Virus record (IMG/VR): IMGVR_UViG_3300033145_001147
Location: 1-63,731 of that record
From: a virus
Taxonomy: Duplodnaviria; Caudoviricetes
Length of the DNA: 63,731 bases
Direction: 5' to 3' (one strand)
Both the position numbers and the translations under genes were made by a program. Position 1 is the first letter of the stretch; the number at the start of each line of letters is the position of its first letter. Positions 5,485 to 58,812 of this stretch are shown here, piece after piece. The notes beneath the pieces are model-generated. The model worked only from the letters and a program-made list of their open reading frames with translations, did no database searches and was not told the origin of the DNA.

Positions 5485-5494
5485 TTAATAAAAG

Positions 5495-8345: not shown

Positions 8346-8951
8346 TGGTGTGATACACCTTATACTTGGAATTGGGTTGGAACAAAATTCAAACATCCCA
8401 AAAAGTTTGAAATAGATGATGAGGTTCATAAAATGACTTACAGTGAGGTTATTTTAGAACTTATTCATTTAGATAATCATGTTAAATCTTTGGTTATCTC
8501 TGGCGGAGAACCTCTCCTTCAGCAAAAAAACCTTATTCCTTTATTGGAAGTTTTGAAAAGTGCTGGTTGGTGGATTGAAATTGAAACTAATGGGACGATT
8601 TTACCTTTAGATGAGATTTTTAATCTTACTGACCAATTCAATTGTTCGCCTAAACTTTTCAATTCAGGTAATCCTGAAAAAATGAGGATTAGACCTAAAG
8701 TATTAAGGGCTTTGGCTCAAAACAAAAAATCTACTTTTAAGTTTGTTGTAAGTTGTAAAGATGATATTTCTGAAATATTGGCTATGATAGAAAATTTCAA
8801 TATGAAACAAGTATATCTTATGCCTTTAGGAATGACTCCTGACCAACTTGAACAAACCAGAGAGATAACTAAAAGGTTGTGTGTGCAATATAACCTAAAC
8901 TTCTCTGACAGGCTACATATTGTCAAATATGGAGACAAGAGAGGTGTATAA
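8346..8951 (+). CDS. queE: QueE exon 2
   Basis: WCDT, SGGEPLLQ, IETNG, SPKL and RLH radical-SAM QueE motifs. Confidence 0.9.
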   Translation, partial: WCDTPYTWNWVGTKFKHPKKFEIDDEVHKMTYSEVILELIHLDNHVKSLVISGGEPLLQQKNLIPLLEVLKSAGWWIEIETNGTILPLDEIFNLTDQFNCSPKLFNSGNPEKMRIRPKVLRALAQNKKSTFKFVVSCKDDISEILAMIENFNMKQVYLMPLGMTPDQLEQTREITKRLCVQYNLNFSDRLHIVKYGDKRGV

Positions 8952-8958
8952 TTGTGAG

Positions 8959-8997
8959 GGTGGTTGCTTTTATGGAGCCACCTGAACAATTTTTTTT
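8959..8997 (+). terminator. intrinsic terminator
   Basis: GGTGGTT/AGCCACC stem, then a long T run. Confidence 0.6.
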
Positions 8998-9024
8998 ATT
9001 ATTAAAATTTAATCAAATAAAAAA

Positions 9025-9486
9025 ATGATAACAATAGAAAAAGAGATTGGACTTGACTATGCTCATAGATTACTAAACCATGAATCGTTATGTAGTAATT
9101 TACATGGTCATAGAGCGAGAATTCTTATCGGGATTGAAGGGGAATTAATTACAAAAGGGAGTAGTCAGGATATGGTAATTGATTTTAAAGATTTAAAACA
9201 AATTCTTAATGAAAAAATAATGAGTCAGTTAGACCATACTTGTATTGCTTCAGTTGAAGATAAAATTTTATCAGATTTTTTAATCCAAAATAATCAAAGG
9301 TATTTGATAATTAGAGGAATGCCTACTGCAGAGAATTTAGCAAAATGGTGTTTTGATGAGATTAAAGAAGATATAGAAAAATTAGGTTGTAAGGTTGCTT
9401 ATGTTAAGTTTTATGAAACTCCGACGAGTGAAGCAATTTATACAAAAGAAATGGATAATGAAGAAATCGGTAGATTTGTGAGATAG
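9025..9486 (+). CDS. queD: 6-carboxy-5,6,7,8-tetrahydropterin synthase
   Basis: AHRL, CSNLHGH, MVIDF, LDH, PTAENLA, ETPTS. Confidence 0.92.
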   Translation: MITIEKEIGLDYAHRLLNHESLCSNLHGHRARILIGIEGELITKGSSQDMVIDFKDLKQILNEKIMSQLDHTCIASVEDKILSDFLIQNNQRYLIIRGMPTAENLAKWCFDEIKEDIEKLGCKVAYVKFYETPTSEAIYTKEMDNEEIGRFVR

Positions 9487-14824: not shown

Positions 14825-14831
14825 AATAAAA

Positions 14832-15777: not shown

Positions 15778-18081
15778 ATGTCGAAATTAATACAAAATAC
15801 TAAATTATTTGAATATAGCGAATCAAATGAAATTGAAGAAATTGAAGATATAGAACAAGAAATAAAGTCTGGTCCTAATGATTTGAGTGATGCTCCTCCA
15901 GAAATATGGTCAGTTATGGGTATTTGGAATGATATAACAGAGGTTGAAAGACGAAAACCAAAGGTTAGAGATTATATTTCTTTTGGAAATATTGGAAAGA
16001 ATGATTACTGGTCAAGATATATGAAAATGAAAGGTGTCCCAGAAAGCAATCCAATTGAAGGGAGAGTTATTAGGATATTTCAAGCAGGAGATACTTTCCA
16101 CGATTTAGTAAAAGGTGTTTTCAAAAGTGCGGGGGTATATATCTTTTCTCAAGATGACCTTAATGAAAAAGGAGAAAGAGATTGGTCTGAAATTCCTGCT
16201 ACAAAAACCCAATTGAAACAATTTGGGGCTTTTGATGTTTTAGTTGGAGGTAAACCAGATTTGGAAAAGGCAATGAAATGGATTGAGAAAAGTGATATGA
16301 CACAATTTCAGAGGGATAAAGCTACAAAAATTGCTGAATATTTTTCTGATAAGTTTCCTAATGGTTTGAAACCAATGATTTATGAAATAAAATCAATTAA
16401 TTGTATTGCCAAAGGTGAATTAATATATACTGAAAATGGTTTAAAAAAAATAGAAGATATTAAAAAAGGAGAGAATATTTATTCTATTAAAGATGATTTT
16501 TCATTAGTAAAAAATAAAGTTAAAAATGTATTCAAAAGTGGTAGAAAAGAAGTTTATAAATTTACTACAAAAACAGGAAAAACTATATTAGCAACAGATA
16601 AACATAAATTTTTGACAACTAATGTTAAATATTTAGCAGATAGAAATATATTACCTAAAAATGTAATTTGGAAAGAACTTAGGGATATAAAAGAAGGTAA
16701 TAAAATAGCTGTGGTTAATAAATATCCTGAAAACAAATTAAAAGAAAAAATAAATAAAGATGTTGCTTTGGTTTTAGGTTATTTAGTTGGTGATGGATAT
16801 ATTAATAAAAAATATCAATCTAATATAGCTGTAGTTAAAATGAATGAAGCTATTTTAATTAAAGATATTATTGATAGAAACTTTGATTTAGATTGTCAAA
16901 TAAAACAATATAAATCTTTGAGTGGGATATTAAGAGTAAATTTAACTGGAGGAATAAAAAATAGAAAAGGTTGTGGTAATTTTAGTAATAAGTTTTTGAA
17001 TTTTTTAAAGAAAAATAATATAAACAAAATTAAAACAGATAAAGAAATACCAAAAGTTATATTAGATAGTAATAATGAAGTAATTGCAATGTTTTTAAGA
17101 GGGCTATTTCAAGCAGATGGTTGTGTAGCTAAACATGAAAATGGTATCCAAATTAATTATGGAACAATAAGTAAAAAATTAGCTAAACAAGTATCCCATT
17201 GTTTATTGCGGTTAGGTATACAAAGTTCGTTATATGAAGTTAATCATAGAAAAGGGGGTTTCAGAAGTAAGAATTCTATTTTTTACAATATAAATATTCG
17301 TTCTTTTAGTTTTAGAAAATTTGCAAAGACTGTAGGTTTTGTTGATTTTAAGAATAAAAAATTAAATAAATTATTAAAAGGGTGGAAGCCAAATAGTAAA
17401 AATAGAAAAGAAAATATATTTTTTGATATTGTAAAAAGTATAGAAAAAATAGGGATTAAAGAAACTTATGATATTGAAGTAGAATCAAAAGACAAGGTAA
17501 TGAATAGTTTTTGTTGCGAAGATATAATTGTCCATAATTCAATGGCTTTTTGGGGTAAGAAAAATTATTTACACGAAGCTTATCCACATCATAGACATCA
17601 ATTATTCGGTTATCTAAAAGCAAACCATAAAAATCCTGAAATGTTAAAACGAGTTGAAGAAGCAGGAATTAAAGTTAATTCAATTGATGAAGGAAGATTA
17701 TTATATATTTCAAAAGATGATTTAGTAATGGCAGAATTTCCAATTTCAATTTATAACAAAAGTTTAGAAGAAAGTTATAAAAATGATATTGATACAATGT
17801 CTGGTTATATTTTAAGAGATGAAGAACCACCTAAACCACCTTATGTAATATTTAATAAAAGGAAAACATTAGGTTTCCAAAAGAATAAAATTAAGTATAA
17901 AGTAAGGGGTTGTTATGTTGTGAATTGGGAAGTAACTTGGAGTTCTTATTTCACACTTATGACAGGTTTCAAATCTGACAAGGTAAAAGATTTTGAACAA
18001 ACATTGAAAGCAGAAATTAAAGAAAAAAATGAAATTATTAAAGCACAAGTTTTAGCAAAGGTCGATGTTATAACTAAGTAA
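15778..18081 (+). CDS. PD-(D/E)XK (Cas4/lambda-exo-like) nuclease with LAGLIDADG intein
   Basis: GDTFH, GAFD, YEIKS and QLFGY nuclease motifs flank the intein. Confidence 0.75.
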   Translation: MSKLIQNTKLFEYSESNEIEEIEDIEQEIKSGPNDLSDAPPEIWSVMGIWNDITEVERRKPKVRDYISFGNIGKNDYWSRYMKMKGVPESNPIEGRVIRIFQAGDTFHDLVKGVFKSAGVYIFSQDDLNEKGERDWSEIPATKTQLKQFGAFDVLVGGKPDLEKAMKWIEKSDMTQFQRDKATKIAEYFSDKFPNGLKPMIYEIKSINCIAKGELIYTENGLKKIEDIKKGENIYSIKDDFSLVKNKVKNVFKSGRKEVYKFTTKTGKTILATDKHKFLTTNVKYLADRNILPKNVIWKELRDIKEGNKIAVVNKYPENKLKEKINKDVALVLGYLVGDGYINKKYQSNIAVVKMNEAILIKDIIDRNFDLDCQIKQYKSLSGILRVNLTGGIKNRKGCGNFSNKFLNFLKKNNINKIKTDKEIPKVILDSNNEVIAMFLRGLFQADGCVAKHENGIQINYGTISKKLAKQVSHCLLRLGIQSSLYEVNHRKGGFRSKNSIFYNINIRSFSFRKFAKTVGFVDFKNKKLNKLLKGWKPNSKNRKENIFFDIVKSIEKIGIKETYDIEVESKDKVMNSFCCEDIIVHNSMAFWGKKNYLHEAYPHHRHQLFGYLKANHKNPEMLKRVEEAGIKVNSIDEGRLLYISKDDLVMAEFPISIYNKSLEESYKNDIDTMSGYILRDEEPPKPPYVIFNKRKTLGFQKNKIKYKVRGCYVVNWEVTWSSYFTLMTGFKSDKVKDFEQTLKAEIKEKNEIIKAQVLAKVDVITK
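16402..17538 (+). mobile_element. intein (379 aa) with LAGLIDADG endonuclease
   Basis: CIAKG start, TDKH block B, LGYLVGDG and LRGLFQADG, ends IVHN followed by Ser. Confidence 0.92.
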
Positions 18082-22437: not shown

Positions 22438-23184
22438 ATGCATAAAAATTTCAAAGATTTAACAGGACAAAAGTTTGGTCGGTTAGTAGTAATTAAAAAA
22501 GTTAATAAAAACAAACAAGGTAAATATTATTGGTTGTGTCAATGTGAATGTGGTAATAAAAAGAAGATTATGGGATGTAATCTTAAAAGTGGAGCTACAA
22601 AAAGTTGTGGTTGTTTACAAAAGGAAATGAGGATGAAAAGAGGTCATATACCTTGGAATAAAGGAATACCAATGAATATAAAAACTAAAAATAAACTTAG
22701 TAATATTTTGAAAGGTAAAAAAAGAACGAAGGAATTTAAAACACATTTATCAAAAATATCAAAAGGAAATACAAGGGCATTAGGATATAAACATACTGAA
22801 AAAGCAAAAAAGAAAATATCTGAAGCACAAATGAAAGAAAAACATCACAATTGGAAAGGAGGAATTACTCCTTTTAGAATTAAAATATGGCGTTCTAAAA
22901 GATATAAAGAATGGAGAGATTCAGTATTTAAATGAGATAATTATACTTGTCAGATGTGTAAATTAAAAGGTTGTAAATTAGAAGCTTATCATATATTAAA
23001 ATTCAGTGATTATGTTTCTAAACGATTTGATGTTAATAATGGAATTACTCTTTGTGTTTTATGCCATAATAAAACAAAAAGAAAAGAAAATAAATATGTC
23101 GATATTTTTAATAAAATAATAAAATTAAAAAAAAATGAAAAAACTTTGCTTTCTAGACACGGAAACAACAGGATTAACACCTAA
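22438..23184 (+). pseudogene. HNH homing endonuclease with in-frame nonsense codon
   Basis: VFK*DNYTCQMC: TGA 22933-22935 where paralogues have Arg; AHH changed to AYH. Confidence 0.8.
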
Positions 23185-23857
23185 AGATAGGTTATGTCAG
23201 GTTGCTTATAAAGTAGAAGATAAAGTTGTAAATGAATATTTCAAACCAGAAGTTCCTATTTGTGTTGATGCAATGTCAGTAAGTCATATTACAAATAAAA
23301 TAGTTGAAGATAAACCAGTTTTCAAAAACAGTGATGTTTATAAAGAATTAGTTCAATTATCTTTAGATGATGATAATATCTTAGTTGCTCATAATGCTCC
23401 TTTTGATATTGATATGCTTTTAAGGGAAGGAATTGAATTTAAGAATTTTATCTGCACAAAAAGGATTGCGCAACATTTGGATGAAGATGCAAAAATTCCA
23501 AGATACAATATGCAATATTTAAGATATTTATTAGATTTAGATGTCGAAGGGACTGCTCATGATGCTTTAGGGGATATTATAGTGCTAGAAGCATTATTTA
23601 ATAGGTTGTTAAAAAGTATGGCTGATAAAAATGATTTACCTCCAGTAGATGAAATGTATAAAATGATGGTAGAGATTTCAAGTAAACCTGCTTTGATTAA
23701 AAAGTTTCCATTTGGGAAACATAAAGGAAAATTATTAAGTGATGTTGTTATTGAAGATAGGGGTTATCTTGAATGGCTTTATGGACAAAAAAGTAATGAG
23801 GAAATTTTGGATGAAGAATGGATATTTACATTGAAACATTATCTACAATTGCCTTAA
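23135..23857 (+). CDS. DEDDh 3'-5' exonuclease (ExoX/DnaQ-like)
   Basis: LDTETTG, AHNAPFD, AHDALGD; C-terminal PFGKHKG. Confidence 0.9.
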   Translation: MKKLCFLDTETTGLTPKDRLCQVAYKVEDKVVNEYFKPEVPICVDAMSVSHITNKIVEDKPVFKNSDVYKELVQLSLDDDNILVAHNAPFDIDMLLREGIEFKNFICTKRIAQHLDEDAKIPRYNMQYLRYLLDLDVEGTAHDALGDIIVLEALFNRLLKSMADKNDLPPVDEMYKMMVEISSKPALIKKFPFGKHKGKLLSDVVIEDRGYLEWLYGQKSNEEILDEEWIFTLKHYLQLP

Positions 23858-23863
23858 TAATAG

Positions 23864-23908
23864 TTATCCACACTTTTACTTGATTATAATAGTTATATAA
23901 TATATAAT
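23864..23908 (+). promoter_or_regulatory. DnaA box plus sigma70-type promoter
   Basis: TTATCCACA 23864-23872, TTGATT-17-TATAAT 23880-23908. Confidence 0.75.
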
Positions 23909-23976
23909 ACATATAAGAAAGTAAAAATATTGTTCTTTGAAAAATGGATAGAGGTAAATTAGAAAAATAACAGCTT

Positions 23977-24240
23977 ATGTTTATATTTACCAAAAAAAAG
24001 AATTTAAAACACAATCAAAAGCCTTTGGATATTTATTTCAGTTCATTGGAAGAGGCTTATGGAAATTTACCAGTCCCTTCAGACGATTGGGCAGGTATTA
24101 GAAAAGAATTATTAAAGTCATACAAAACTGAGTGGGAAGTTGATGAAAAAATCGTTGAATTAGGAAATGCTATTGAAACTATAAGAGAACATTATTTAGA
24201 TGTAGCAGAAGTTTTGGAAAAACAAACAATTTATAGTTAA
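23977..24240 (+). CDS. hypothetical protein enclosed by a 27-bp inverted repeat
   Basis: 87-aa ORF between arms 23927-23953 and 24255-24281. Confidence 0.6.
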   Translation: MFIFTKKKNLKHNQKPLDIYFSSLEEAYGNLPVPSDDWAGIRKELLKSYKTEWEVDEKIVELGNAIETIREHYLDVAEVLEKQTIYS

Positions 24241-24296
24241 TTATTATCAACACACTCTATCCATTTTTTAGAGAACAATATATATAGAAGATGTTC

Positions 24297-24788
24297 TTTG
24301 AAAATTAAATAGAGAGGTAGCCAAAAAGGGAAGGCAATAGGGATAGACCGCTACAATACGAATCTATCCAATTTGTAATAGTGCAGATACAAACCTATGA
24401 GATGACCTTTTTAATTTACCGCCGTGATTTGCAACAAATGTTTGGTAGAATAGCATCGCTGAACAGTAGAGCTAATTATTTAACAACCTTTAAGAAAATG
24501 ATAAATTCTTAAAAAAGTTGTTAAACAAAAAGCGAGTTTAACTCTAATTCTATGTAGGGCAATCCTTGAGTTAATCAATGTCGGGCAGTGATAGGTGTAA
24601 GATAAGTTGAACATCCCATTATCAAAGCTCTCGCAAGGAGTATGGGAGGAGTAATCCAACCAAGTAGGATTTAACAAGCTAATTAAATTTTATTTGGAGT
24701 AATATAGTAAACTGAACTTTTGAACTGGAACTAATAATTAAAAATATGACTAAGTCCAATTTCTCATCCTCTCTATTTAATTTTCAAA
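24297..24788 (+). ncRNA. candidate large structured ncRNA
   Basis: no plus-strand ORF of 60 aa or more, perfect 21-bp closing stem, many internal hairpins and GNRA-type loops. Confidence 0.65.
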
Positions 24789-24824
24789 AGATAAAAAAAT
24801 TAATAATTAATAAGATGAAGTATT

Positions 24825-26318
24825 ATGTCTAAGTTTAACGAAAATACAAAAGAAAAAGATGTGGTTGAAAACCATGAAGGTGCAGTAGCATATTCATTAT
24901 CTCCAGAAATGGAATTATATAGTGCTGTTGTTACATCATCACTTTCTAATAAGTTTTATGAATCAGAAAATGAAACTTTAGAAAGAATTAAAGGATTGAT
25001 TAAAAAAGTTTCTCCAGAATTTGTTGGTAAATTAGCTGTATATGCTAGAGAACAAATGTATTTGAGAAGCATTCCTTTAGTTCTTACTACAGAATTAGCA
25101 AAGATTCATAATGGAGATAATTTAGTAAGTAAAATTGTTCAAAGAGTAGTTAAGAGAGCAGATGAAATTACTGAATTGCTTTCATATTATGCTTTAGCAA
25201 ATGAAAGAACTGATACAAAGAAATTAGGAAAATTATCTAGTCAATTTAGAAAAGGATTAAATTATTCATTTAATAAGTTTAATGAATACAATTTTGCAAA
25301 ATACAATAGAAAGAAAGAAATTACCTTGAAAGATGCTTTGTTTATTGTTCATCCTAAAGCAATTTCAAGAGAACAACAAGATTTGTTTGATAAGATTGTA
25401 GATGATAAATTAGAAGTTCCAGATACTTGGGAAACTCAATTAGGAAAAACTGATGATAGAAAAACAGAATGGGAAGGATTAATTGATAGAAATAGTTTAA
25501 AATATATGGCACTTTTGCGTAATTTACGAAATATCTTGCAAGCAAAAGTTTCGCAAAAGCATTTAACTGTTGTTGCTGGAAGATTAGGTAATAAAGAAGA
25601 AGTTGTTAAATCAAAACAATTCCCATTTAGATTTTTGTCAGCATATAAGGAAATCAAAGATACAGTTGATGGAAAATCTGGAATGATATTAGATGCTTTA
25701 GAAGATGCAATGGTAGCAAGTGCTGAAAATATTCAAGGATTTGATTATGATATTTCAGTATTATTAGCTTGTGATGTATCAGGCTCAATGGAAACTTCAA
25801 TTTCTGATAGAAGTAAAGTTCAGTTATTTGATATCGGTTTATCATTAGCAATGCTTTTGAGAAATAGATGCAAAAATGTTATTACTGGAATGTTTGGAGA
25901 TACTTGGAAAGCAATCAATGTTCCTAAACAAAACATTTTAGCTAATGTAATGGAGTTCCATAAAAGAGAAGGAGAAGTTGGATATTCAACAAATGGATAT
26001 AAAGTTATTCAAGATTTAATTGACAAAAAAATGAAAATTGATAAGATTATGATATTCACAGATTGTCAGTTATGGGATAGCGAAGAAGGATGGGGTGACG
26101 GCAAACATATCAAAGATTTGTGGAAAGAATACAAAAAGATTTCTCCAAATTCAAAATTATACTTATTTGATTTAGCTGGATATGGAGATACTCCGTTATC
26201 AGTAAAAAGAAATGATGTGTTTTTGATTAGTGGTTTTTCAGACAAAGTTTTTGATATGTTGGATGCTTACGAGAATGGTTCTAATGCATTAGATGTTATA
26301 AGTAAAATTGAATTATAA
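24825..26318 (+). CDS. rsr: Ro60/Rsr TROVE-vWA RNA-binding protein
   Basis: KLAVYARE, FAKYNR, TWET, MALLRNLRNI, PFRFLSA, vWA DVSGSM and FTDCQ. Confidence 0.93.
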   Translation: MSKFNENTKEKDVVENHEGAVAYSLSPEMELYSAVVTSSLSNKFYESENETLERIKGLIKKVSPEFVGKLAVYAREQMYLRSIPLVLTTELAKIHNGDNLVSKIVQRVVKRADEITELLSYYALANERTDTKKLGKLSSQFRKGLNYSFNKFNEYNFAKYNRKKEITLKDALFIVHPKAISREQQDLFDKIVDDKLEVPDTWETQLGKTDDRKTEWEGLIDRNSLKYMALLRNLRNILQAKVSQKHLTVVAGRLGNKEEVVKSKQFPFRFLSAYKEIKDTVDGKSGMILDALEDAMVASAENIQGFDYDISVLLACDVSGSMETSISDRSKVQLFDIGLSLAMLLRNRCKNVITGMFGDTWKAINVPKQNILANVMEFHKREGEVGYSTNGYKVIQDLIDKKMKIDKIMIFTDCQLWDSEEGWGDGKHIKDLWKEYKKISPNSKLYLFDLAGYGDTPLSVKRNDVFLISGFSDKVFDMLDAYENGSNALDVISKIEL

Positions 26319-26321
26319 TTT

Positions 26322-27029
26322 ATGAAATATGGTATAATATATAAAGTAGAAAATATTCAGAATAGAAAGATTTATATTGGTCAGACTATTAAATCATTAG
26401 ATGAACGAAAGTATGAACATATATATCAATCTATAAAAAAAGATAGTCAATATTATTTTCATAAAGCAATTAGGAAATATGGAAAAGATAGTTTTAGATG
26501 GAATGTTATTTGTAAATGTAATAATATAGATGAACTTAATGATATAGAAATAAAACAGATAAAAAAACATAATTCAAATAATTGTAAATATGGTTATAAT
26601 TTGGACAGTGGTGGTAGTAATGCTATCCCAAATAAAGAAATAAAAAATAAGATTAGTCAAACATTAAAAGGTCATATAACATCTGATATAACTAAACAAA
26701 AGATTAGAAATTCATTAAAAGGAAATATTCCTTGGAATAAAGGTCAGAAAATAGGGAAAGTAAATATTAGTAAAGATGTAAGAAAAAGAAAAAGTCAATT
26801 ATTAAAAAAACAATGGAAAGATAATAATTTTGTAAATAAAATAAAGAATGCAACATTAAAAGCAAATTCAAAACAATGGATTGTTATAGAACCAAATGGT
26901 AAAGAAATTGTTGTTGATAGATTGGTTGAATTTTGTAAAAAAAATAATTTATGTGACAGAAATATGAGAGCAGTTGCTAATAAAACAAGAAATAGTCATA
27001 AGGGTTGGAAATGTAAGTATTCGATATGA
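26322..27029 (+). CDS. GIY-YIG homing endonuclease
   Basis: GIIY...IYIGQT...R...E...GYN with NUMOD-like C-terminus. Confidence 0.9.
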   Translation: MKYGIIYKVENIQNRKIYIGQTIKSLDERKYEHIYQSIKKDSQYYFHKAIRKYGKDSFRWNVICKCNNIDELNDIEIKQIKKHNSNNCKYGYNLDSGGSNAIPNKEIKNKISQTLKGHITSDITKQKIRNSLKGNIPWNKGQKIGKVNISKDVRKRKSQLLKKQWKDNNFVNKIKNATLKANSKQWIVIEPNGKEIVVDRLVEFCKKNNLCDRNMRAVANKTRNSHKGWKCKYSI

Positions 27030-27088
27030 TGGAAGCATTGGAAAATGGAAGCACAAATGTTAAAGAAATTGAAAAGATAGAGTTATAG
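27017..27088 (+). pseudogene. displaced alternative 3' end of Ro60
   Basis: VFDMMEALENGSTNVKEIEKIEL* versus Ro60 VFDMLDAYENGSNALDVISKIEL*. Confidence 0.8.
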
Positions 27089-27105
27089 TTCATTAAAAAA
27101 ATATA

Positions 27106-27233
27106 AAGGTGCCGTAGATAAGAGTTACTTCTTGGCACTGGCAATGAAGGTTCAATTCCTTCTACTTCGAACATCGGAGTATCGTCTAATGGTAGGACTC
27201 CAGTTTATAGTCTTTTTTCGCTTGTTGCCCCTT
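27106..27233 (+). ncRNA. Y RNA (YrlA-like) 1 with tRNA-like domain
   Basis: terminal stem GGTGCCGTAG / CGCTTGTTGCC; internal T arm GAAGGTTCAATTCCTTC, loop-closed acceptor stem, D arm GTCTAATGGTAGGAC. Confidence 0.82.
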
Positions 27234-27244
27234 ATTCAAAAATT

Positions 27245-27377
27245 AGCAAAGGTGTCGTAGAGGAGAGTTACTTCAACTATTAATTGAAAGGTCGTTGGTT
27301 CGAGTCCAACCAAATCTTCGGATTTGTAGCTCAGTTGGTAGAGCATTATGTTCTTTTTTCGTTTGTTACCCTTTGCT
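27245..27377 (+). ncRNA. Y RNA (YrlA-like) 2 with tRNA-like domain
   Basis: same terminal motifs; T arm GTTGGTTCGAGTCCAAC, CAAATC-TTCG-GATTTG, D arm GCTCAGTTGGTAGAGC. Confidence 0.82.
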
Positions 27378-27387
27378 TGAAATCAAA

Positions 27388-27624
27388 TTGGAGGTGCCGT
27401 AAATAAGAGTTACTTCATCAATAAATTACAGAAGATAGATTCGTCTATCGTCTATATGGAAAATGGATTCGTCTGTTTTCTCCTTAGAAGAGAGTTCGAA
27501 CTCCTATAAATTCATTCGTGGATTTGTAGCCATAAGGCACAAACTTAGATTGCAATTTAATTAGAATCAGTTAAATATTTTAATTGAATTGTTAAATAGT
27601 CTTTTATTGTCTGTCGCCCTCCAA
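27388..27624 (+). ncRNA. Y RNA-like 3, expanded
   Basis: same terminal motifs; extra TTCG-capped hairpins, degenerate T and D arms. Confidence 0.72.
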
Positions 27625-27626
27625 AT

Positions 27627-27698
27627 GGCTCTATCATCTAATGGTAGGATAGCAGGTTTTCGACCTGATAATCGTGGGTTCAATTCCCCGTGGAGTCA
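27627..27698 (+). tRNA. tRNA-Glu(TTC), atypical
   Basis: cloverleaf GGCTCTA/TGGAGTC, anticodon loop TTTTCGA, bulged T stem, no encoded CCA. Confidence 0.7.
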
Positions 27699-27707
27699 CA
27701 AGAATTT

Positions 27708-27773
27708 ATAAGGTGCCGTAGATAAGAGTTACTTCTTCGGATTATTAAGTCTTTTATCGCTTGTTGCCCTTAT
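27708..27773 (+). ncRNA. minimal Y RNA-like 4 (terminal stem only)
   Basis: same 5' and 3' motifs with a short loop and no tRNA-like domain. Confidence 0.72.
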
Positions 27774-27775
27774 AT

Positions 27776-27847
27776 TGCGGGTAGGACGAATGGTAAGTCA
27801 GAAGCCTCATAAGCTTTAGAAATGGGTTCGATTCCCATACTCCGCAA
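27776..27847 (+). tRNA. tRNA with CAT anticodon (Met or Ile2), atypical acceptor stem
   Basis: GAAGC-CTCATAA-GCTTT anticodon arm, ATGGG-TTCGATT-CCCAT T arm. Confidence 0.7.
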
Positions 27848-27849
27848 CA

Positions 27850-28245
27850 ATGAATTTATTAAAAGAAAAAGAAATAAGAAATAAAACTATACATTATGGA
27901 TTTTCTTTAGGTGCTTATGCTTTAATGGAATTAGCAACGAAAAAGAATTTAGATAAAATTATATTAGTATCTCCAAGTCCGTTATTCAAAGATATGATAG
28001 GTAAGTTTCCTAAAAAATACCAAAAGACAGTTAGAAAAGAAATGATTAAGAATACAGTTTCAGAAATGTGTGCAAAAATAAATTGTGAAGTAGAAATTTA
28101 TGTAGGAGAAAAAGAACATCTTTTAATGAAACAAACAGCTAGGAAAATTGCAAAAGAATTTGGAATTAAATTAAATATAATTAAAGGAATGGAACATGAT
28201 AAAAAATTATTTGAAAAAGTTTTAAGTATTGAGAATGGAACATAA
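27850..28245 (+). CDS. minimal alpha/beta-hydrolase-like protein
   Basis: GFSLG nucleophile elbow, ILVSP, C-terminal His. Confidence 0.6.
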   Translation: MNLLKEKEIRNKTIHYGFSLGAYALMELATKKNLDKIILVSPSPLFKDMIGKFPKKYQKTVRKEMIKNTVSEMCAKINCEVEIYVGEKEHLLMKQTARKIAKEFGIKLNIIKGMEHDKKLFEKVLSIENGT

Positions 28246-28325
28246 AGTGTTTCATTCCCAATTCTTAATAAGGAGAATTGGAATTGTTCTTTACAGTAAA
28301 CATTAAATAGAATGGAGGTAGAAAA

Positions 28326-28556
28326 ATGGATACAAAGAAAAGGTATCAGCCCAATGCGAATGGCCGCAAGGAAAAAGATGGTTTTATCTGCTCCAGTGCC
28401 ACTTGGAAATGGTTTGACTGCGTTGCAGTTAAAATCGACAAAAAAGGTGTGTTTGTCCGAGATACAAAAGATGCGGCGGATACAACTTTGAGTTTCACTC
28501 ATAATGAGTGGAGAGCCTTCCTGAAAGGTGTTGGAAATGGCGAATTTGATGTTTAA
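28326..28556 (+). CDS. DUF397 family protein
   Basis: CVAV...VFVRDTKD....LSFTHNEWRAFLKGVGNGEFD; SD GGAGG. Confidence 0.8.
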   Translation: MDTKKRYQPNANGRKEKDGFICSSATWKWFDCVAVKIDKKGVFVRDTKDAADTTLSFTHNEWRAFLKGVGNGEFDV

Positions 28557-30428: not shown

Positions 30429-30503
30429 GGTGGATGTGGTGTAATGGTAGCACTTTATTCTGTGAAAATGACAGATTGGGTTCGAATCTCAACTTCCACC
30501 CCA
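30429..30503 (+). tRNA. tRNA-His(GTG)
   Basis: cloverleaf, G-1:C73, anticodon loop CTGTGAA, encoded CCA. Confidence 0.85.
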
Positions 30504-30582: not shown

Positions 30583-31059
30583 ATGAAGATTAATTATAAA
30601 AAGCTAGAACAAGATTCTAAAAGTCTTGCTCAAAAAATAGAAAAAGGAAAGTATGATGCCGTTTATGGTATTCCTGCTGGTGGTATTCTTCCAGCTTTTA
30701 TTATTTCTAAAGAGTTAGATATCCCTTTGGTATCTGAAATTGAAGAAGGTAAAAATATTTTAGTAGTAGATGATTTAGTTGATTCAGGTGATACAATTCT
30801 TTCTTTAAGAGAAGAATATGGAAACTTTGATGTTGCTGTTATTTATATAAAAGATGTTGATGGAATAGGAGCTTCATTAGTTGAAGTTTATGAAAAACTT
30901 ATCCCAAATGAATGGGTAGATTTACCTCATGAAGGATTAGAATTGCCTATAGAAAATAATATAATAAGAATTTTAGAATATTATAATCAACAAATTACAG
31001 TTGAAGAAGTAAGTAGTCTTAATAATTTAATAAAACAAAGATATGAAAAAACAAAGTAA
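30583..31059 (+). CDS. type I phosphoribosyltransferase (Gpt-like)
   Basis: YGIPAGG, PRPP loop LVVDDLVDSGDT, WVDLPHE. Confidence 0.85.
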   Translation: MKINYKKLEQDSKSLAQKIEKGKYDAVYGIPAGGILPAFIISKELDIPLVSEIEEGKNILVVDDLVDSGDTILSLREEYGNFDVAVIYIKDVDGIGASLVEVYEKLIPNEWVDLPHEGLELPIENNIIRILEYYNQQITVEEVSSLNNLIKQRYEKTK

Positions 31060-32089
31060 ATGTAAAGTTTGTGGTAAGAAGTTTTCTTTTGACGATTCTG
31101 TTCAAAAAGGATTATATTGTTGTGTTAAATGTCGTTATGCAGACCATTCTAATATTATAAAAGATAGTTATACTCCAGAACTTAAAAAATTACGTTCTGA
31201 ACATGCAAAAGAACAGATGAAAGACAAGAAGCAAATAGAAATTCGTCAACAAAAATGTGGATATAAAATGACTGACGAACAAAGGGAAAAACTATCAGAT
31301 TCAAAAATTAAAAATTCTTTTACTAGGGCTAAAAAGTTAATTATAAAGGAGAGAGGAGAATTTTGTGAAAGATGTGGGAAAGATATTTCTGATTGGCAAT
31401 TAACTGTCCATCATAAAAACGGAAGAAAATGGGATAATGATTTAGATAATTTGCAAATACTTTGTCGTTCTTGTCATTCTAAATTACATAATCAGATAGG
31501 GAAATTGTCTAGTCATTTTGCAGGATTAGCAACAGTTGAAAATTATATTGCTTTAATGCTTCAACATTTAGGAGTTGATTTAGATGACCCTGATTTCAAA
31601 GAAACTCCATTAAGAGTAGCAAGAATGTATAATGAACAATTTGAAGGATTAAAACCTGAAGCTAAAGATGAAATAAAAAATATATTTGGCACAAGATTTC
31701 CTTGTGAAAATGATAATATGGTTGTTATAGATGATATTCGAGTTTATAGTTTGTGTCCTCATCATTTGGTGACGATAATTTATGATATAGCAATTGGTTA
31801 TGTTCCTAATAAATTTGTATTAGGATTGTCTAAATTTGCACGAATAAGTGAGTTATTAGCTCATAAACCTGTTATTCAAGAAACTTTTACTGCTGAACTT
31901 GGTAAGGCAATAGAGGATGAATTGAAACCTCTCGGTGTTGCGGTTAGGATAAAGGGAACTCATTTTTGTATGGTATCAAGAGGAGCAAAACAACAAAATT
32001 CTAAAACTATGACGGCATATATGTCTGGAGTATTTAGAGATAATAAAGACAATTCTAGAAGTGAATTTTATAAGTTAATAGAAAAATAA
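31043..32089 (+). CDS. folE: HNH endonuclease fused to GTP cyclohydrolase I
   Basis: N-terminal CERC..HH..N..CRSCH; C-terminal ETPLRVAR, SLCPHH, GLSKFAR, IQE, HFCMVSRG. Confidence 0.9.
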   Translation: MKKQSKCKVCGKKFSFDDSVQKGLYCCVKCRYADHSNIIKDSYTPELKKLRSEHAKEQMKDKKQIEIRQQKCGYKMTDEQREKLSDSKIKNSFTRAKKLIIKERGEFCERCGKDISDWQLTVHHKNGRKWDNDLDNLQILCRSCHSKLHNQIGKLSSHFAGLATVENYIALMLQHLGVDLDDPDFKETPLRVARMYNEQFEGLKPEAKDEIKNIFGTRFPCENDNMVVIDDIRVYSLCPHHLVTIIYDIAIGYVPNKFVLGLSKFARISELLAHKPVIQETFTAELGKAIEDELKPLGVAVRIKGTHFCMVSRGAKQQNSKTMTAYMSGVFRDNKDNSRSEFYKLIEK

Positions 32090-32090
32090 T

Positions 32091-32795
32091 ATGGATGTAA
32101 AAAAAGCAGTTGTCGTTCTTTCAGGGGGAATGGATAGCACAACATTATTGTATAGGGTTATAAATGAAGGATTTGAAGTTTCTGTCTTGTCTTTTGATTA
32201 TGGTCAAAGACATAAGAAAGAGTTAGAAGTTGCAAAAAAGACTTGTGAGAAATTAAATGTCTTACATAAGATAATTGATTTGACAAGTGTTAAGCAAGTT
32301 ATGAAGAATTCTGCCTTGACAGATGACATAGAAGTGCCTGAAGGGCATTATGCAGACGAGAATATGAAATCAACAGTTGTTCCTAATAGAAATATGATTA
32401 TGGCTTCGATTGCGATTGCAGAAGCAGTTTCTATTGAAGCGGAAGCTGTTTATTTAGGAGTTCATGGAGGCGACCATGACATTTATCCAGATTGTCGTAA
32501 AGAGTTTATAGAAAAATTGAATGATGTTTCTAAGATTGCTAATTATCATTCAGTTGAAATTCGAGCCCCTTATTTAGAAATGGATAAGGGAGATATTCTT
32601 ATTGAAGGAAAAGAATTAGGAGTTGATTATTCTTTTACACGAACTTGTTATCAAGCTGGAGAAAAATCATGTGGTCGATGTGGTTCCTGTATAGAACGTA
32701 TCTTGGCATTTAAGAAAGCAGGTTGTATTGACCCTATTTTTTATGAAAAATCATGGGAAGAAGTTTTACAACATGCAGAAAAATTGGATAAATAG
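32091..32795 (+). CDS. queC: 7-cyano-7-deazaguanine synthase
   Basis: SGGMDS, YGQRH, VPNRN, YPDCR, CY...CGRCGSC. Confidence 0.95.
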   Translation: MDVKKAVVVLSGGMDSTTLLYRVINEGFEVSVLSFDYGQRHKKELEVAKKTCEKLNVLHKIIDLTSVKQVMKNSALTDDIEVPEGHYADENMKSTVVPNRNMIMASIAIAEAVSIEAEAVYLGVHGGDHDIYPDCRKEFIEKLNDVSKIANYHSVEIRAPYLEMDKGDILIEGKELGVDYSFTRTCYQAGEKSCGRCGSCIERILAFKKAGCIDPIFYEKSWEEVLQHAEKLDK

Positions 32796-32820
32796 AAAAT
32801 TATAGGTTATAATATAACCT

Positions 32821-33417
32821 ATGAAATGTCTTAATTGTAATGAAGAAATAAATAATAAAAAATTTTGTGATATTAAATGTTATCAAGAATTTAGAAAACA
32901 ATTATATGATGAAAAATATACAAAACAATGTTTAGTTTGTGGTAATTATTTTAGATGTAAATCTACAGCTCCTAAAACTAAAACTTGTGGAAAAATATGT
33001 TTAAGTAAATTATTTTCTCAAAGAAAATGGTCAAAAGTTACAAATAAGAAAAGGTCTAACACTTTAATAAAATATTGGAATAGCCGAATAAGAATAGGTA
33101 TATTACATACAAAAGATGAAAAAAGAAGAATTAAAGAAAGTTGTAAAGGAATAAATAAAAAAGATAAAAACGGTAATTGGAAAGGAGGAATTTCAACTGA
33201 AAATAATTTATTAAGAAATAGTCCTGAATATTGTGATTGGAGAAAGAAAGTTTTTGAAAGAGATAATTATACTTGTCGGAAATGTGGAGATAAAGGAATT
33301 GAATTAAATGCTCATCATAAAAAATCTTTTTCTAAATATATTGAACTAAGATTTGATATTAATAATGGTTTAACTTTATGTAAACAATGTCACAAACAAA
33401 TACATCAAAAAAAATAA
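32821..33417 (+). CDS. HNH homing endonuclease
   Basis: [12 protein letters not shown]...AHHK...[10 protein letters not shown]. Confidence 0.88.
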
Positions 33418-33509
33418 AAGGGGAAGAAAAACCCTGTGGTAAATGTGGTTCTTGTGTTGAAAGAGCGGAAGGGTTTGTAAGAGCGGGAATGATTGACCCT
33501 ACATTATAA
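33417..33509 (+). pseudogene. displaced alternative 3' end of queC
   Basis: [30 protein letters not shown] mirrors QueC GEKSCGRCGSCIERILAFKKAGCIDP. Confidence 0.85.
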
Positions 33510-33513
33510 AAAT

Positions 33514-33903
33514 ATGAAGATAAGATTACCTAAAAGTGATGAAATTGATGAAACACAAAAATTAATGAATCAATTTTATTTCATGTATAAAAAAGCATTA
33601 ATAGAATACATAAAAAGTTTTTGTGTTTTTATTGCCGAAGAAGATGATACAATTGTGGGAATAATACTTTATAACAAAAAAAGAAATAAAATACTTTTAT
33701 TAGTTATTAAAAAAGAATATAGAAGGAAAAATATAGGAAAAAAATTATTTGAAACATCAAGAACGATATTAAACTTAAAAAAGATAAAAATATTAGCTGT
33801 TGAAGAAAGTATTAATTTTTGGCAATCAATTGGTTTTTACAAGACTAATAAATTTGAAAAAACTAAACATAAGATATTAACAGAAATGGAATGGGGGATA
33901 TAA
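33514..33903 (+). CDS. GNAT family N-acetyltransferase
   Basis: VGII, motif A VIKKEYRRKNIGK, motif B INFWQSIGF. Confidence 0.85.
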   Translation: MKIRLPKSDEIDETQKLMNQFYFMYKKALIEYIKSFCVFIAEEDDTIVGIILYNKKRNKILLLVIKKEYRRKNIGKKLFETSRTILNLKKIKILAVEESINFWQSIGFYKTNKFEKTKHKILTEMEWGI

Positions 33904-33931
33904 GTTTATAAAATAATAACAAGATAAAAAT

Positions 33932-34366
33932 ATGAAAAACTATGGTTCAAAAGAAGTAGATAAAATGGTTAATACAAAGAATTGGGAACTTTGGGATGCT
34001 CCCAAGAATTCAACTCCGATTTATCAATATTTTCCAGAGTTTACTTGTTTATGTCCGAGAAGTGGTTACCCTGATTTTGCAAAAGTGCATATTATTTCAG
34101 TTGCAAATAAGAAAGTTTTGGAGTTGAAAGATTTAAAGTTATGGCTTAATTCTTTCAGAAATGTGGGAATTAGTCATGAAAATGCAACAAATCTTATTGC
34201 TGAAACTTTAATGAAAAAATTAAAATTAAAATATATTTTTGTCTTAATGGAATATTCTCCTAGAGGTAATTTACATACTTTACCTATGGTAGAACTGAAA
34301 AGACAATATAAATTAAGTAATGAAGTCGTTCAAATAAAAAAGAAATTAATAGATAAGGTAATATAA
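33932..34366 (+). CDS. queF: preQ0 reductase, unimodular QueF
   Basis: EFTCLCP..G.PDFA, QueF-like motif ELKDLKLW, SHE, PRG. Confidence 0.85.
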   Translation: MKNYGSKEVDKMVNTKNWELWDAPKNSTPIYQYFPEFTCLCPRSGYPDFAKVHIISVANKKVLELKDLKLWLNSFRNVGISHENATNLIAETLMKKLKLKYIFVLMEYSPRGNLHTLPMVELKRQYKLSNEVVQIKKKLIDKVI

Positions 34367-38624: not shown

Positions 38625-38680
38625 AAAATACATTATAATAGTTATAGTTCATTAAAAATTGGGGTCAAGAATTAAAATAT

Positions 38681-39028
38681 ATGAAGAAGAAAAAAGAAGA
38701 AAAAATCCTTAAATGGAGATTAAAAGATAAGCCAACTGTAGATGATGTCACACAGTTGCTAGACAAAGGGCTTTTGTCTAAAGATGAAGCAAGACAAATA
38801 ATTCTTGATGAAACAGATATCAAGCATTCAGATATTCTTGCATTACAAGATGAGATTAAATTATTAAGAGAATTAGTTTTGAAAATATCAGAACAAAATT
38901 CGCGATTACAAGTTATTAAAATTATTGAAAGAAATATTGATAATGTTCCTTTCAGATGGACACAACCTTATACAGTTTATTGTAGCAATCTACACGATGA
39001 AAATAGTGGAACATTTAGATTAAATTAA
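38681..39028 (+). CDS. hypothetical protein enclosed by a 27-bp inverted repeat
   Basis: 115-aa ORF between arms 38642-38668 and 39043-39069. Confidence 0.7.
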   Translation: MKKKKEEKILKWRLKDKPTVDDVTQLLDKGLLSKDEARQIILDETDIKHSDILALQDEIKLLRELVLKISEQNSRLQVIKIIERNIDNVPFRWTQPYTVYCSNLHDENSGTFRLN

Positions 39029-39086
39029 TTATTAGTGATAATTTGACCCCAATTTTTAATGAATTATAAATTAGCTAAAAGATGTA

Positions 39087-56165: not shown

Positions 56166-56907
56166 TAACTTACAAGGTGGCAGAAGGGTGCGAACCCTAA
56201 AGAAAAATGCCGTGAATTGCTGGAACACCCAAAATGGAATAAGAAGCCCATATTGGACAATCAGCAGCCAAGCTTTACCAGTAATGGTTTAGAAGGTTCA
56301 ACGACTAGGGAGCGAATCCTTGATAGGATAGTAATCTCCCCACGAGCGCGGTGCTCTGTTCTTTAACAAATTACATTTGATAAGCAAGAGATTTTAATAT
56401 ATAATATATATATGAATAAAAAATCACTAGCAAATCTTACATATAAATATAAAAAAGGTTGTATTCCTTGGAACAAAGGATTGTCTGCAAAAAATAATGA
56501 GTCAATGAAAAAAATTGCAGAATCAAGAAAAGGAAATAAACATCCTTTGTGGAAAGGTGGAAAAGCAAAAGCAACTGGAGGATACATTAAAATTAAAATG
56601 CCAAATCATCCAAATGCTAATTGTGAAGGATATATTTTAGAACATCGTTTAGTTATGGGAAAAGTTTTAAAAAGAAATCTTTTACCTCATGAAGAAGTTC
56701 ATCATATAAATGGTATAAAAGATGATAATCGTCCAGAAAATTTAGAGATTGTCCTTAAATATAAACATTTTGGAAATATTTGCTGTCCATATTGTAAGAA
56801 AAATTTTAAAATCAAATAATTTGTTAAAGAACAGAAGATGATATAGTCTGACCTTTATGGTAACATAAAGAAGTATTGGATAAAGAGCCAATATAATAAC
56901 AAAAATG
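56166..56907 (+). mobile_element. group I intron 2 in major capsid gene
   Basis: P1 CTGCCAT/GTGGCAG, P10 TACAAG/CTTGTA, conserved core, terminal G 56907. Confidence 0.9.
56412..56819 (+). CDS. intron-encoded HNH endonuclease
   Basis: EHRLVM...VHHINGIKDDNRPENL; promoter TTGATA-17-TATAAT. Confidence 0.88.
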   Translation: MNKKSLANLTYKYKKGCIPWNKGLSAKNNESMKKIAESRKGNKHPLWKGGKAKATGGYIKIKMPNHPNANCEGYILEHRLVMGKVLKRNLLPHEEVHHINGIKDDNRPENLEIVLKYKHFGNICCPYCKKNFKIK

Positions 56908-57418: not shown

Positions 57419-58356
57419 GGAGAAATTTGGTCCTTCAAAAAGGGGGTGAACTGCTGGAACATCCAAGAAGGAATTTTAAGTCCTTATTGGACAATCAGCA
57501 ACCAAGCTTTCGCAGTAATGCGTTAGAAGGCTCAGAGCATAGATTCCGAGTCCAGAATGGACAGTAATGAATCCACGAGTGCCCTCCAGTTCTTTTACAA
57601 TAGAATATATAGAATAATATTTGATTTTTTGTTAAAATAATTATATAATTATATATATAATATATGATTAAACGTGAAATTATCAAAAAATGGAAATCTG
57701 GTAGAGGTTACAGGTATTTGTTAATTTGTCAGAATTGTGGTGAAGAATTTGAAAAATGTGGGAAACAAATTAATAATGATAAATGTTATTTTTGTTCAGT
57801 TAAATGTAGTAATTCTTTCCCTAAAAAAATAAAACAAATTAATCAGACTAAACAAAATAGATATAAGCAACAAAAACAAAATTCTGGTTATGCTTTTACA
57901 TTAAAAGCAAGGAGAAGAATGAGTGTTGGGCAAAAAGGAAAACCAATATGGAATAAGGGAAAATTTGGTGAAGCAATGCCAAATTGGCAAGGAGGAATAT
58001 CTTTTGAACCTTATACTGCAGAATTTAATAACGGATTAAAATTACAGATTAGAAAAAGAGATAATTACACTTGTCAAGAATGTGGTAAAACAGAAAAACA
58101 ATTAAAAAGAAAGTTAAGTATCCATCACATTGATTATAATAAAAAAAATAATGATGAAAATAATTTAATTTCTCTTTGTAGTAAATGTCACGGAAAAACT
58201 AATTTTAAGAGAAAAGATTGGACAACATATTTCCAAAAAAAATAAAATATTATTCTATGTATTCTATGTAAAAGAATTGATGATATATGCCGAACTGCAA
58301 CTATATATAAAATTGCAGAAGTAGAAGATAAAAAACTTTTACGATAACAAAAATTG
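57419..58356 (+). mobile_element. group I intron 3 in major capsid gene
   Basis: P1 GAAGGAT/GTCCTTC, core with covarying P7 (GCATA/TATGC), terminal G 58356. Confidence 0.88.
57664..58245 (+). CDS. intron-encoded HNH endonuclease
   Basis: RDNYTCQEC..IHHIDYNK..NLISLCSKCH. Confidence 0.88.
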   Translation: MIKREIIKKWKSGRGYRYLLICQNCGEEFEKCGKQINNDKCYFCSVKCSNSFPKKIKQINQTKQNRYKQQKQNSGYAFTLKARRRMSVGQKGKPIWNKGKFGEAMPNWQGGISFEPYTAEFNNGLKLQIRKRDNYTCQECGKTEKQLKRKLSIHHIDYNKKNNDENNLISLCSKCHGKTNFKRKDWTTYFQKK

Positions 58357-58457: not shown

Positions 58458-58502
58458 CTTACTGATGGGATATTTACCCCATAGGTATCCCACTTCAGTA
58501 GG
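58458..58502 (+). terminator. long hairpin after capsid gene (terminator or 3' stabiliser)
   Basis: CTTACTGA-TGGGATA / TATCCCA-TCAGTAGG arms. Confidence 0.55.
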
Positions 58503-58517
58503 TTAAATTAAAAAATT

Positions 58518-58724
58518 ATGAAAAAAGTTAAACTATTAAAAGAATATCAAGATTATTCTCGTGGAGAGATAATTGAAGTAAGTAATAATGTTGCTTTCGG
58601 TCTAGTTGATTCTGGAATTGCAAGAAATGTTGTTACTGGAGATTTTATTAAGAAAGTTAGTTTTGGTAAAACTAAATCTTTTGAAAAAGCTCCTTCAACA
58701 AAAAGTTATAGAAAAAGATTATAG
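58518..58724 (+). CDS. small head-associated protein (ribosomal L9 N-terminal-like)
   Basis: MKKVKLLK....GEIIEVS..A..LV..G.A directly after the capsid gene. Confidence 0.6.
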   Translation: MKKVKLLKEYQDYSRGEIIEVSNNVAFGLVDSGIARNVVTGDFIKKVSFGKTKSFEKAPSTKSYRKRL

Positions 58725-58812
58725 TTTTTTAATCTAACTTACTGAAGGCTTGAAAATTATTATATATGTATTGAAATTGTAAAAATTATTATTAAGTTTA
58801 TTTTTTACAATT

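Follow-up and report, generated by a model that had tools for sequence, protein, structure and literature searches.

BoxA elements and leader-trailer helices are textbook features of ribosomal RNA (rRNA) operons and, lambda-type nut sites aside, are regarded as a matter of rRNA; RNase III is likewise textbook material. In Escherichia coli, the helix that joins the leader and trailer of 23S rRNA is 27 bp long and is cut by RNase III, and formation of the 30S subunit needs a leader-trailer helix longer than 17 bp even without RNase III (excerpt of PMC10250234). NusB/NusE bound to boxA has been proposed to tether the leader to the elongating RNA polymerase, helping the distant strands to meet (excerpt of PMC4807359). 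Bacillus subtilis uses two enzymes on its 23S stalk: RNase III, which cuts on either side, and Mini-III, which produces the mature ends (excerpt of PMC4838370). The present analysis concerns a stalk of this style in a virus of the Caudoviricetes, where it surrounds a single protein-coding gene, ORF87. The window, that is, the whole stretch of DNA analysed, is the IMG/VR virus record IMGVR_UViG_3300033145_001147 (63.7 kb, estimated to be 77% complete). The stalk around ORF87 is best read as an RNA-level mimic of an rRNA stalk, a reading to which we give a probability of roughly 0.8.

The helix around ORF87 and its likeness to pre-23S stalks

Twenty-seven consecutive pairs join positions 23927-23953 to 24255-24281, 25 of them Watson-Crick and two G.U when the plus strand is read as RNA; on the minus strand, both G.U pairs would be A.C mismatches. 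The loop of 301 nt holds a single open reading frame (ORF) at 23977-24240, with the 5' arm ending 23 nt before its ATG and the 3' arm beginning 14 nt past its stop codon. A first reading of the letters, hereafter the original prediction, had proposed this 27-bp pairing with only two G.U deviations, and it was reproduced here. Shuffled sequence gives no such stems: the window contains five long-range stems that count 19 or more Watson-Crick pairs, include at least three G-C pairs and are free of transversion mismatches, compared with a mean of 0.05 in 40 dinucleotide shuffles, and four of the stems in the window reach 23 or more such pairs, a length found in none of the shuffles. Folded as plus-strand RNA, the segment 23915-24295 has an energy of -78.2 kcal/mol (z -4.1), and the stalk is present in both the minimum free energy and the centroid structure. 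The minus strand of the same segment folds more weakly, at -63.6 kcal/mol.

The outer part of the 5' arm is a boxA-type 14-mer, TTGTTCTTTGAAAA. One genome per prokaryote species was scanned for this word, which gave at least 122 stretches, and 80 of these were fetched. Of these 80 genome loci, 13 have the exact 14-mer inside an rRNA operon and in sense orientation (eight in the 16S-23S spacer and five in the 16S leader), the assemblies being labelled Bacillus, Neobacillus, Paenibacillus, Clostridium, Veillonella, Mycoplasmopsis, Vampirovibrio, Nitrospira and two of deltaproteobacteria type. Wherever the locus included a complete 23S gene (Bacillus, Clostridium and Mycoplasmopsis, 3/3), the 14-mer starts a helix of 25-27 bp with the 23S trailer, and a U.G wobble occupies the identical boxA position in the phage stalk and in those three. 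Counted from GTTC, the phage 5' arm is identical at 19 of 22 positions to the pre-23S leader strand of a Bacillus sp., and the 3' arm at 18 of 22 to the trailer strand. The same counts, 19/22 and 18/22, are obtained when the stalk of a homologous phage locus (L010, see below) is compared with the two strands of Mycoplasmopsis. Because the 14-mer, the helix length, the wobble position and the letters of both strands are shared, the stalk is, on this comparison, a near-copy of a Bacillota-type pre-23S leader-trailer helix. This goes beyond the "boxA-like" wording of the original prediction, whose proposal of an rRNA-style stalk beginning with boxA is strongly supported by the finding that the same 14-mer starts real 23S leader-trailer helices.

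The motif has been recognised in rRNA operons before. The word GTTCTTTGAAAACTGAAT is a standard Mycoplasma 16S-23S spacer primer (excerpt of PMC4312986), and a phytoplasma spacer probe contains the same letters (excerpt of PMC7110721). The boxA consensus given for gamma-proteobacteria is GYTCTTTAANA (excerpt of PMC5725501); the stalks around ORF87 and around the next unit fit it at 10 of 11 positions and a site at 56358 at 11 of 11, with the reservation that the boxA of the host may have other letters. When papers were searched for the motif in its RNA spelling, none was matched. Within the window, the 13-mer TGTTCTTTGAAAA has exactly two copies, at 23931 and 24292. The second heads the stalk around a large RNA candidate, a recurrence that the original prediction had reported correctly. 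Allowing up to two mismatches, 22 copies were found against 13.1 expected, a weak enrichment, and the degenerate form GYTCWTTDAMA occurs nine times against 3.0 expected, a count reached by one of 100 shuffles.

The clues to the host disagree. The letters of the stalk look Bacillota-like, one ORF87 homologue carries the NCBI label of a Candidatus Woesebacteria assembly, and Melainabacteria, Nitrospira and deltaproteobacterial assemblies also have TTGTTCTTTGAAAA in their rRNA operons; because of this disagreement and the wide spread of the 14-mer, no host is assigned. The close sequence match is a possible host-prediction clue, if the phage copies the boxA and stalk of the rrn operons of its host.

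Thirteen homologues of ORF87, at 52%-89% identity, were found in a large protein collection, and their alignment has 25 invariant columns, including the block LEEAYGNLP. Judged by this alignment, ORF87 is a member of a real, conserved protein family, and since the protein is conserved, its unit (unit 1) is a message in any case. The AlphaFold2 model shows four helices (pLDDT 77.8). No Pfam family (E<=0.01) or PHROG family was matched, no fold neighbour of the model was found in PDB or BFVD at E<=0.001, and the phage collection contained no close relative of the protein.

Covariation, strand bias and competing explanations

An alignment-based search led to 12 fetched loci, L006-L017, comprising one viral and 11 metagenome contigs, with seven stalk sequences that are distinct besides that of the window. 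An enclosing helix of 23-32 bp is present in all 12. In 11 of them it lies within 250 nt of the gene, and in L017 it encloses the homologue together with a second ORF. Covariation was scored in the six of the eight distinct sequences whose arms were in register in the MAFFT alignment (the window, L007, L011, L010, L016 and L015); L006, which MAFFT misaligned, and L017, with its two-ORF loop, were left out of the pair count, and both have a helix of their own. In the six sequences, 90.3% of the cells are pairing in register, compared with 37%-48% when the 3' partner is slid by one to three columns. Double compensatory changes occur at 14 of the 27 pairs, and the covariation score was reached by none of 500 shuffles. 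Covariation among homologs, which the original prediction had named as a check, is thus found with changes on both sides of about half of the pairs.

The window and the 12 loci were then rescanned under a scoring that treats G.U and A.C equally. Among the distinct stems reported, taken together, the positions that are not Watson-Crick comprise 59 G.U, 15 A.C and 25 others. When the count is limited to the 25 stalks that have no more than one other mismatch, there are 51 sense-strand G.U and nine A.C (p 3e-8), and the excess persists against a composition-corrected null of 0.573, which takes account of the G-rich, C-poor plus strand (p 6e-6). With one representative per apparent family the counts are 37 and 7, and in the stalks of the window alone 11 and 2. 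Since sense-strand G.U outnumber A.C, the wobble counts indicate that the pairing is selected on the transcribed strand. Covariation, wobble bias and the better fold of the plus strand favour RNA over DNA; the sequence by itself would also be compatible with the folding of single-stranded DNA of that sense. Selection at the RNA level, which the original prediction had suggested from two G.U pairs, is therefore borne out by covariation in the homologous loci and by the sense-strand excess of G.U. With a long-range flanking helix (27 bp over a 301-nt loop) and covarying pairing, the stalk resembles the leader-trailer helices of pre-rRNA; it is a mimic and not a member of that class, as it encloses a protein-coding ORF and no ribosomal RNA.

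Some features of the flanks recur as well. A spacer of 23-24 nt between helix and start codon, with the letters CAGCTTATG at the start codon, is found in most homologous loci (flanks read by eye). AT-only palindromes of the type TTAATTAGCTAATTAA, with stops in all frames, were seen by eye on the stretch that leads from the stop codon of an ORF87 homologue to the 3' arm.

What is observed is an architecture (helix, covariation, sense-strand bias, near-identity to pre-23S helices, predicted promoter and tandem units); Nus binding, cleavage and stabilisation are inferred by analogy with rRNA operons. From a phage promoter, transcription would begin some 12 nt ahead of the 5' arm. The boxA at 23931-23943 is promoter-proximal, lying between the predicted promoter (23880-23908) and the enclosed product, and while it is single-stranded, host NusB/NusE would bind it, making the RNA polymerase rRNA-type and termination-resistant and keeping the 5' arm tethered. 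Once the 3' arm has been transcribed, 300 nt further on, the two arms would anneal and the ORF87 message would be looped out. The 27-bp duplex would then be a substrate for host RNase III, possibly also for Mini-III, and cleavage would yield a single-gene RNA with paired and protected ends, freed from the next unit. We place the complete mechanism, in which Nus recruitment is combined with RNase III-type processing of a pre-rRNA mimic, at somewhat better than even odds. Excision and stabilisation by the stalk may reasonably be inferred. Circularisation, the further outcome that the original prediction had considered, has no support, because the ends left by RNase III are not substrates of the RtcB-type ligase, a gene fragment of which is present in the window.

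Several observations weigh against this mechanism. In three homologous stalks (L006, L016 and L017) the helix is kept while the letters of boxA have drifted, so that the helix and not boxA is the constant feature. Two stalks of this style in the window are helix P8 of group I introns; if P8 were cleaved ahead of splicing, the capsid message would be lost, and cutting can therefore not be the purpose of every stalk. A further stalk, at 58493, probably fits translational masking better than processing, because its arms cover the start and stop codons of the enclosed ORF. Among the matches listed for other viruses, 80 loci were fetched, and in these a comparable partner arm was found for none of 82 instances of the 14-mer; the best score there was 28.5, compared with 45-50 for the stalks of the ORF87 family and of rRNA under the same scoring. 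On this count, the 14-mer alone was rejected as a marker of stalks in viruses. Finally, no RNA run was listed among those that contain the stretch, and when contigs of two DNA runs were compared with the window, one contig of run X2 (1188 nt) matched only 23927-24280, with 37 differences and 772 + 62 nt unmatched beyond, and another began to match exactly at 24292. As the X2 contigs match from arm to arm or from 24292, the arms also mark boundaries of DNA exchange.

The drift of boxA and the P8 helices would both be accounted for by a closing helix that is neither cut nor bound by Nus factors. Such a helix would loop each unit, prevent misfolding across units and shield the paired ends from exonucleases, and the likeness to boxA would be a relic of descent from an rRNA stalk. 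The three drifted loci keep the helix, the ribozyme requires its ORF-bearing loop to be closed at P8, and E. coli cannot form 30S subunits without the leader-trailer helix, irrespective of RNase III (excerpt of PMC10250234). However, both strands of the ORF87 stalk lie near those of a real 23S stalk and 14 bases of the boxA region are identical, which suggests that the letters still matter. A perfect duplex of 25-27 bp is a standard substrate of RNase III, and escape from it would require protection. This explanation is treated as a serious rival, though an unlikely one.

The X2 contigs bear on a second explanation, in which the arms act in DNA as the terminal inverted repeats of a mobile gene cassette or as recombination sites that shuffle modules. 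Homology runs from arm to arm in one contig, and in the second from the first base of the next unit. ORF87 units are also found in differing gene neighbourhoods (L006, L009, L015 and L017), and the outer 13 bases common to the units could serve as microhomology for recombination. Yet each unit has inner arm halves of its own, with compensatory changes that a shared transposase site would not need, the wobbles are biased to the transcribed strand, and both strands of an rRNA helix have been copied; exchange at the borders is moreover expected if selection keeps whole units. The original prediction had itself named DNA terminal repeats as the alternative that would refute it. In view of the arm-to-arm match in X2, that alternative may apply as a side property; no target duplication was seen by eye, and Pfam showed no transposase gene among the ORFs of the window that were scanned. 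As a mobile element with terminal inverted repeats, the unit was therefore rejected, with inner arms that differ and covary, although the arm-to-arm blocks of X2 remain unexplained. We regard a role of the arms in DNA as quite improbable and retain the RNA-level mimic as the preferred reading.

Neighbouring units, promoter and genome setting

The coordinates of the features are collected in Table 1. The promoter assigned to the ORF87 unit scores 10 of 12 (TTGATT, 17-nt spacer, TATAAT) and is the top plus-strand site in 22500-28500; the predicted transcript should start near 23915, about 12 nt ahead of the 5' arm. By eye, a -35/-10 pair lies a few bases upstream of the 5' arm in most homologous loci, and a promoter of sigma-70 type is recognisable upstream in L006, L007/L011 and L010. 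Also by eye, a module consisting of the DnaA-box-like TTATCCACA, a TTGATT/TTGTAA -35 and a TATAAT -10 heads several gene blocks of the window.

Table 1. Coordinates of the stalks, enclosed products and associated features (positions refer to the window unless a homologous locus is named)
Feature	Position	Strand	Remarks
Promoter, ORF87 unit	23864..23908	+	TTATCCACA 23864-23872; TTGATT 23880-23885; 17-nt spacer; TATAAT 23903-23908
5' arm, ORF87 stalk	23927..23953	+	outer part 23930-23943 is the boxA-type 14-mer TTGTTCTTTGAAAA
Spacer, helix to start codon	23954..23976	+	23 nt; letters CAGCTTATG at start codon
ORF87	23977..24240	+	87 aa, 264 nt; acidic, pI 5.1; predicted four-helix protein
3' arm, ORF87 stalk	24255..24281	+	pairing partner of 23927..23953
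5' arm, second stalk	24292..24317	+	starts with TGTTCTTTGAAAA; 10 nt after first stalk
ORF-less RNA candidate	24318..24767	+	450 nt, richer in G+C, inside second stalk, directly upstream of Ro60 gene
3' arm, second stalk	24768..24793	+	pairs with 24292..24317
Ro60 (Rsr) orthologue	24825..26318	+	TROVE 7e-35, vWA_Ro60 2.8e-07, phrog_850; next gene downstream
tRNA-His leader-trailer helix	30412..30517	+	30412-30434/30495-30517; 19 Watson-Crick, 3 G.U, 1 mismatch
ORF115 unit	38642..39069	+	arms 38642-38668/39043-39069; 26 Watson-Crick, 1 G.U; 5' arm holds GTTCATTAAAA
Capsid-intron stalk	56355..56835	+	56355-56373/56817-56835, 19 bp perfect; 5' arm holds GTTCTTTAACA; HNH ORF 56412-56819
Second HNH stalk	57587..58279	+	57587-57622/58245-58279; about 13 + 23 bp, one-base offset; starts with GTTCTTTTACA
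68-aa ORF stalk	58493..58747	+	58493-58521/58719-58747; 29 positions: 25 Watson-Crick, 3 G.U, 1 A.C
Stand-alone boxA-like motifs	27088-27098, 6926-6936		GTTCATTAAAA, GTTCATTGAAA; long intergenic stretches
Repeats of TTATCCACA promoter module	near 400, 5490, 9610, 10957, 14830, 48955		box inverted at 14830
AT-only palindromes	L016 ~915-935; L017 ~2620-2637; L006 ~3330-3355; window 24237-24250		shorter form in window
Head-to-tail array, L014	71-237, 318-593, 599-880, 881-1053		stalk-closed units

The second stalk contains 21 perfect bp (24297-24317/24768-24788) and can be extended to 24292-24793. The 450-nt stretch that it encloses has no credible ORF, and a search of 23800-24900 against Rfam at E<=10 gave nothing meaningful and no Y RNA. 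Run X2 holds a relative of this RNA that lacks 24464-24545, an AT-rich internal hairpin. An alternative, local hairpin (24255-24317, -17.3 kcal/mol) can form between the 3' arm of unit 1 and the 5' arm of unit 2, which are sufficiently paralogous for this, and it was this hairpin that produced a spurious match to a microRNA family. The 5' arm of unit 1 is also able to pair with the 3' arm of unit 2.

The position of the Ro60 gene raises a further explanation, that the stalk-ended RNAs are ligands of Ro60, Y-RNA-like after trimming, or decoys whose abundant copies would occupy host Nus factors and rRNA-processing nucleases and so disturb ribosome production. The gene follows both stalk units, and in the viral contig L006 a TROVE gene (4083-5546) comes after the homologous ORF87 unit, with an HNH gene between them. 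Bacterial rsr genes adjoin Y RNA genes, and the maturation of 23S rRNA in Deinococcus involves Rsr. Against this, a Pfam scan found no TROVE protein in the fetched flanks of L007, L009, L013, L015 and L017, no Y RNA or other Rfam family was matched, and unit 1 encodes a conserved protein. Since the other scanned loci are without TROVE and no Y RNA was matched, a ligand or decoy role is rated very improbable. The phage Ro60 protein itself has relatives at up to 37% identity only, among the matches listed, and no locus in viral contigs was found for it.

Further products are stalk-closed in the window. ORF115 (38681-39028, 115 aa), which has the large terminase gene on one side and a DNA methylase gene on the other, is unrelated to ORF87. 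The acceptor stem of tRNA-His (30430-30503) is prolonged by about 17 bp through its leader-trailer helix. The ORF at 58518-58724, whose start and stop codons are covered by the arms, encodes a basic protein of 68 aa. In addition, the major capsid gene (Phage_capsid pieces 55948-56292 and 56909-57526) is split by group I introns with HNH ORFs (55099-58330). Rfam scores two of these introns, at 55099-55274 and at 56155-56430 plus 56782-56868, and its group I alignment identifies the stalk 56355-56835 as helix P8. The second HNH ORF (57664-58245) lies in a paralogous, intron-like stretch near 57440-58330, the third such stretch, which Rfam does not score.

Stalk-closed units follow one another closely, with 24281 abutting 24292 in the window and 593 abutting 599 and 880 abutting 881 in L014. 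The units of the L014 array, seen also in L008, L009, L012 and L013, have loops of 115-232 nt, and at least two contain no credible ORF; one is preceded by a TGGTATAAT promoter. Rfam gave no match in L014:1-1100 at E<=5. L009 and L014 show independent compensatory changes relative to each other.

The spread of stalks over such different products invites a broader proposal, in which the pre-rRNA layout is a general grammar of expression for units carrying a message, a non-coding RNA, a tRNA or an intron endonuclease, each unit is wrapped in a boxA-led copy of the 23S stalk of the host and is made and trimmed by the rRNA machinery of the host, Ro60 and an RtcB-type ligase act on the ends, and the 450-nt RNA is a giant Y-RNA-like partner of Ro60 or forms circles. 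We consider this distinctly unlikely. An ORF at 2091-2438 corresponds to no more than the C-terminal quarter of RtcB RNA ligase (profile positions 314-425 of 426). As neither of the two ORFs that precede it has a Pfam match, the RtcB gene may be split or interrupted.

Within 4 kb, no long partner arm was found for the boxA-like sites at 6926 and 27088. The latter heads a tRNA-like region after a GIY-YIG gene, in which matches at 27627-27698 and 27777-27846 were made by Rfam and not by ARAGORN. The G+C content of the window is 28%, all long ORFs are on the plus strand, and the DNA has no close relative in the phage collection. The genome is very rich in selfish elements, with about 10 HNH, GIY-YIG or Vsr-type endonuclease ORFs and inteins in the helicase gene (3655-5484), in a 767-aa ORF with LAGLIDADG (15778-18081) and in the portal gene (49083-52367). 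Genes of the 7-deazaguanine pathway at 8322-9486 and 31043-34366 (a radical-SAM protein, PTPS/QueD, a GTP cyclohydrolase I-HNH fusion, QueC and a QueF-like protein) suggest modified bases in phage DNA or tRNA.

Comparison with described systems

No published description of boxA-led stalks around phage protein genes was found, and the literature matches concerned rRNA, Nus factors and RNase III only. If the proposed mechanism is correct, viruses would route messages through the rRNA production line of the host, with fast and termination-resistant transcription, assisted folding and trimming by the RNase III family. Hosts would then be taken over, and operons punctuated, in a new way, and a simple, transferable design for insulated and stable single-gene RNAs would be at hand.

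The intervening sequences of 23S rRNA (S23p) carry a small ORF for a helical protein in the loop of a long stem and are removed by RNase III. The ORF87 unit likewise has a small helical-protein ORF in the loop of a long stem; its assignment as a PF05635 intervening sequence was rejected, as ORF87 has no Pfam match and does not lie inside an rRNA gene. Like Y RNAs, the 450-nt phage RNA has its 5' and 3' ends joined in a closing stem and neighbours a Ro60 gene, but it is far longer, and the stalk accompanies the ORF87 gene also at loci that lack Ro60. Identity as a Y RNA was rejected on the negative Rfam result for 23800-24900 and on the coding nature of unit 1.

The RNase III sites in the early mRNAs of phages T7 and SP82 are local intercistronic hairpins, whereas the arms described here are 301 nt apart, flank a whole gene and copy an rRNA helix; a local RNase III hairpin site was rejected for this enclosed cistron. 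What is shared with the T7 R sites, and with the SP82 sites cut by B. subtilis RNase III (cited in PMC4838370), is double-stranded RNA between phage cistrons, which would set free separate messages whose ends are structured. As in lambda nut and rrn antitermination, a boxA-type element lies just downstream of a promoter, but no boxB hairpin and no N-like protein were identified in the phage. Furthermore, the phage boxA is part of a long-range helix, whereas boxA of a nut site is not.

The closest counterpart is the pre-23S stalk of Bacillota and Mycoplasmatota, which is alike in the 14-mer at the base of the 5' strand, in a length of 25-27 bp, in the position of the U.G wobble and in its proximity to the promoter. 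The two differ in what is enclosed, a 2.9-kb rRNA in the rRNA operon and, in the phage, a 264-nt ORF, a 450-nt RNA, a tRNA or intron ORFs, and in arrangement, the phage-borne version having several units placed head to tail.

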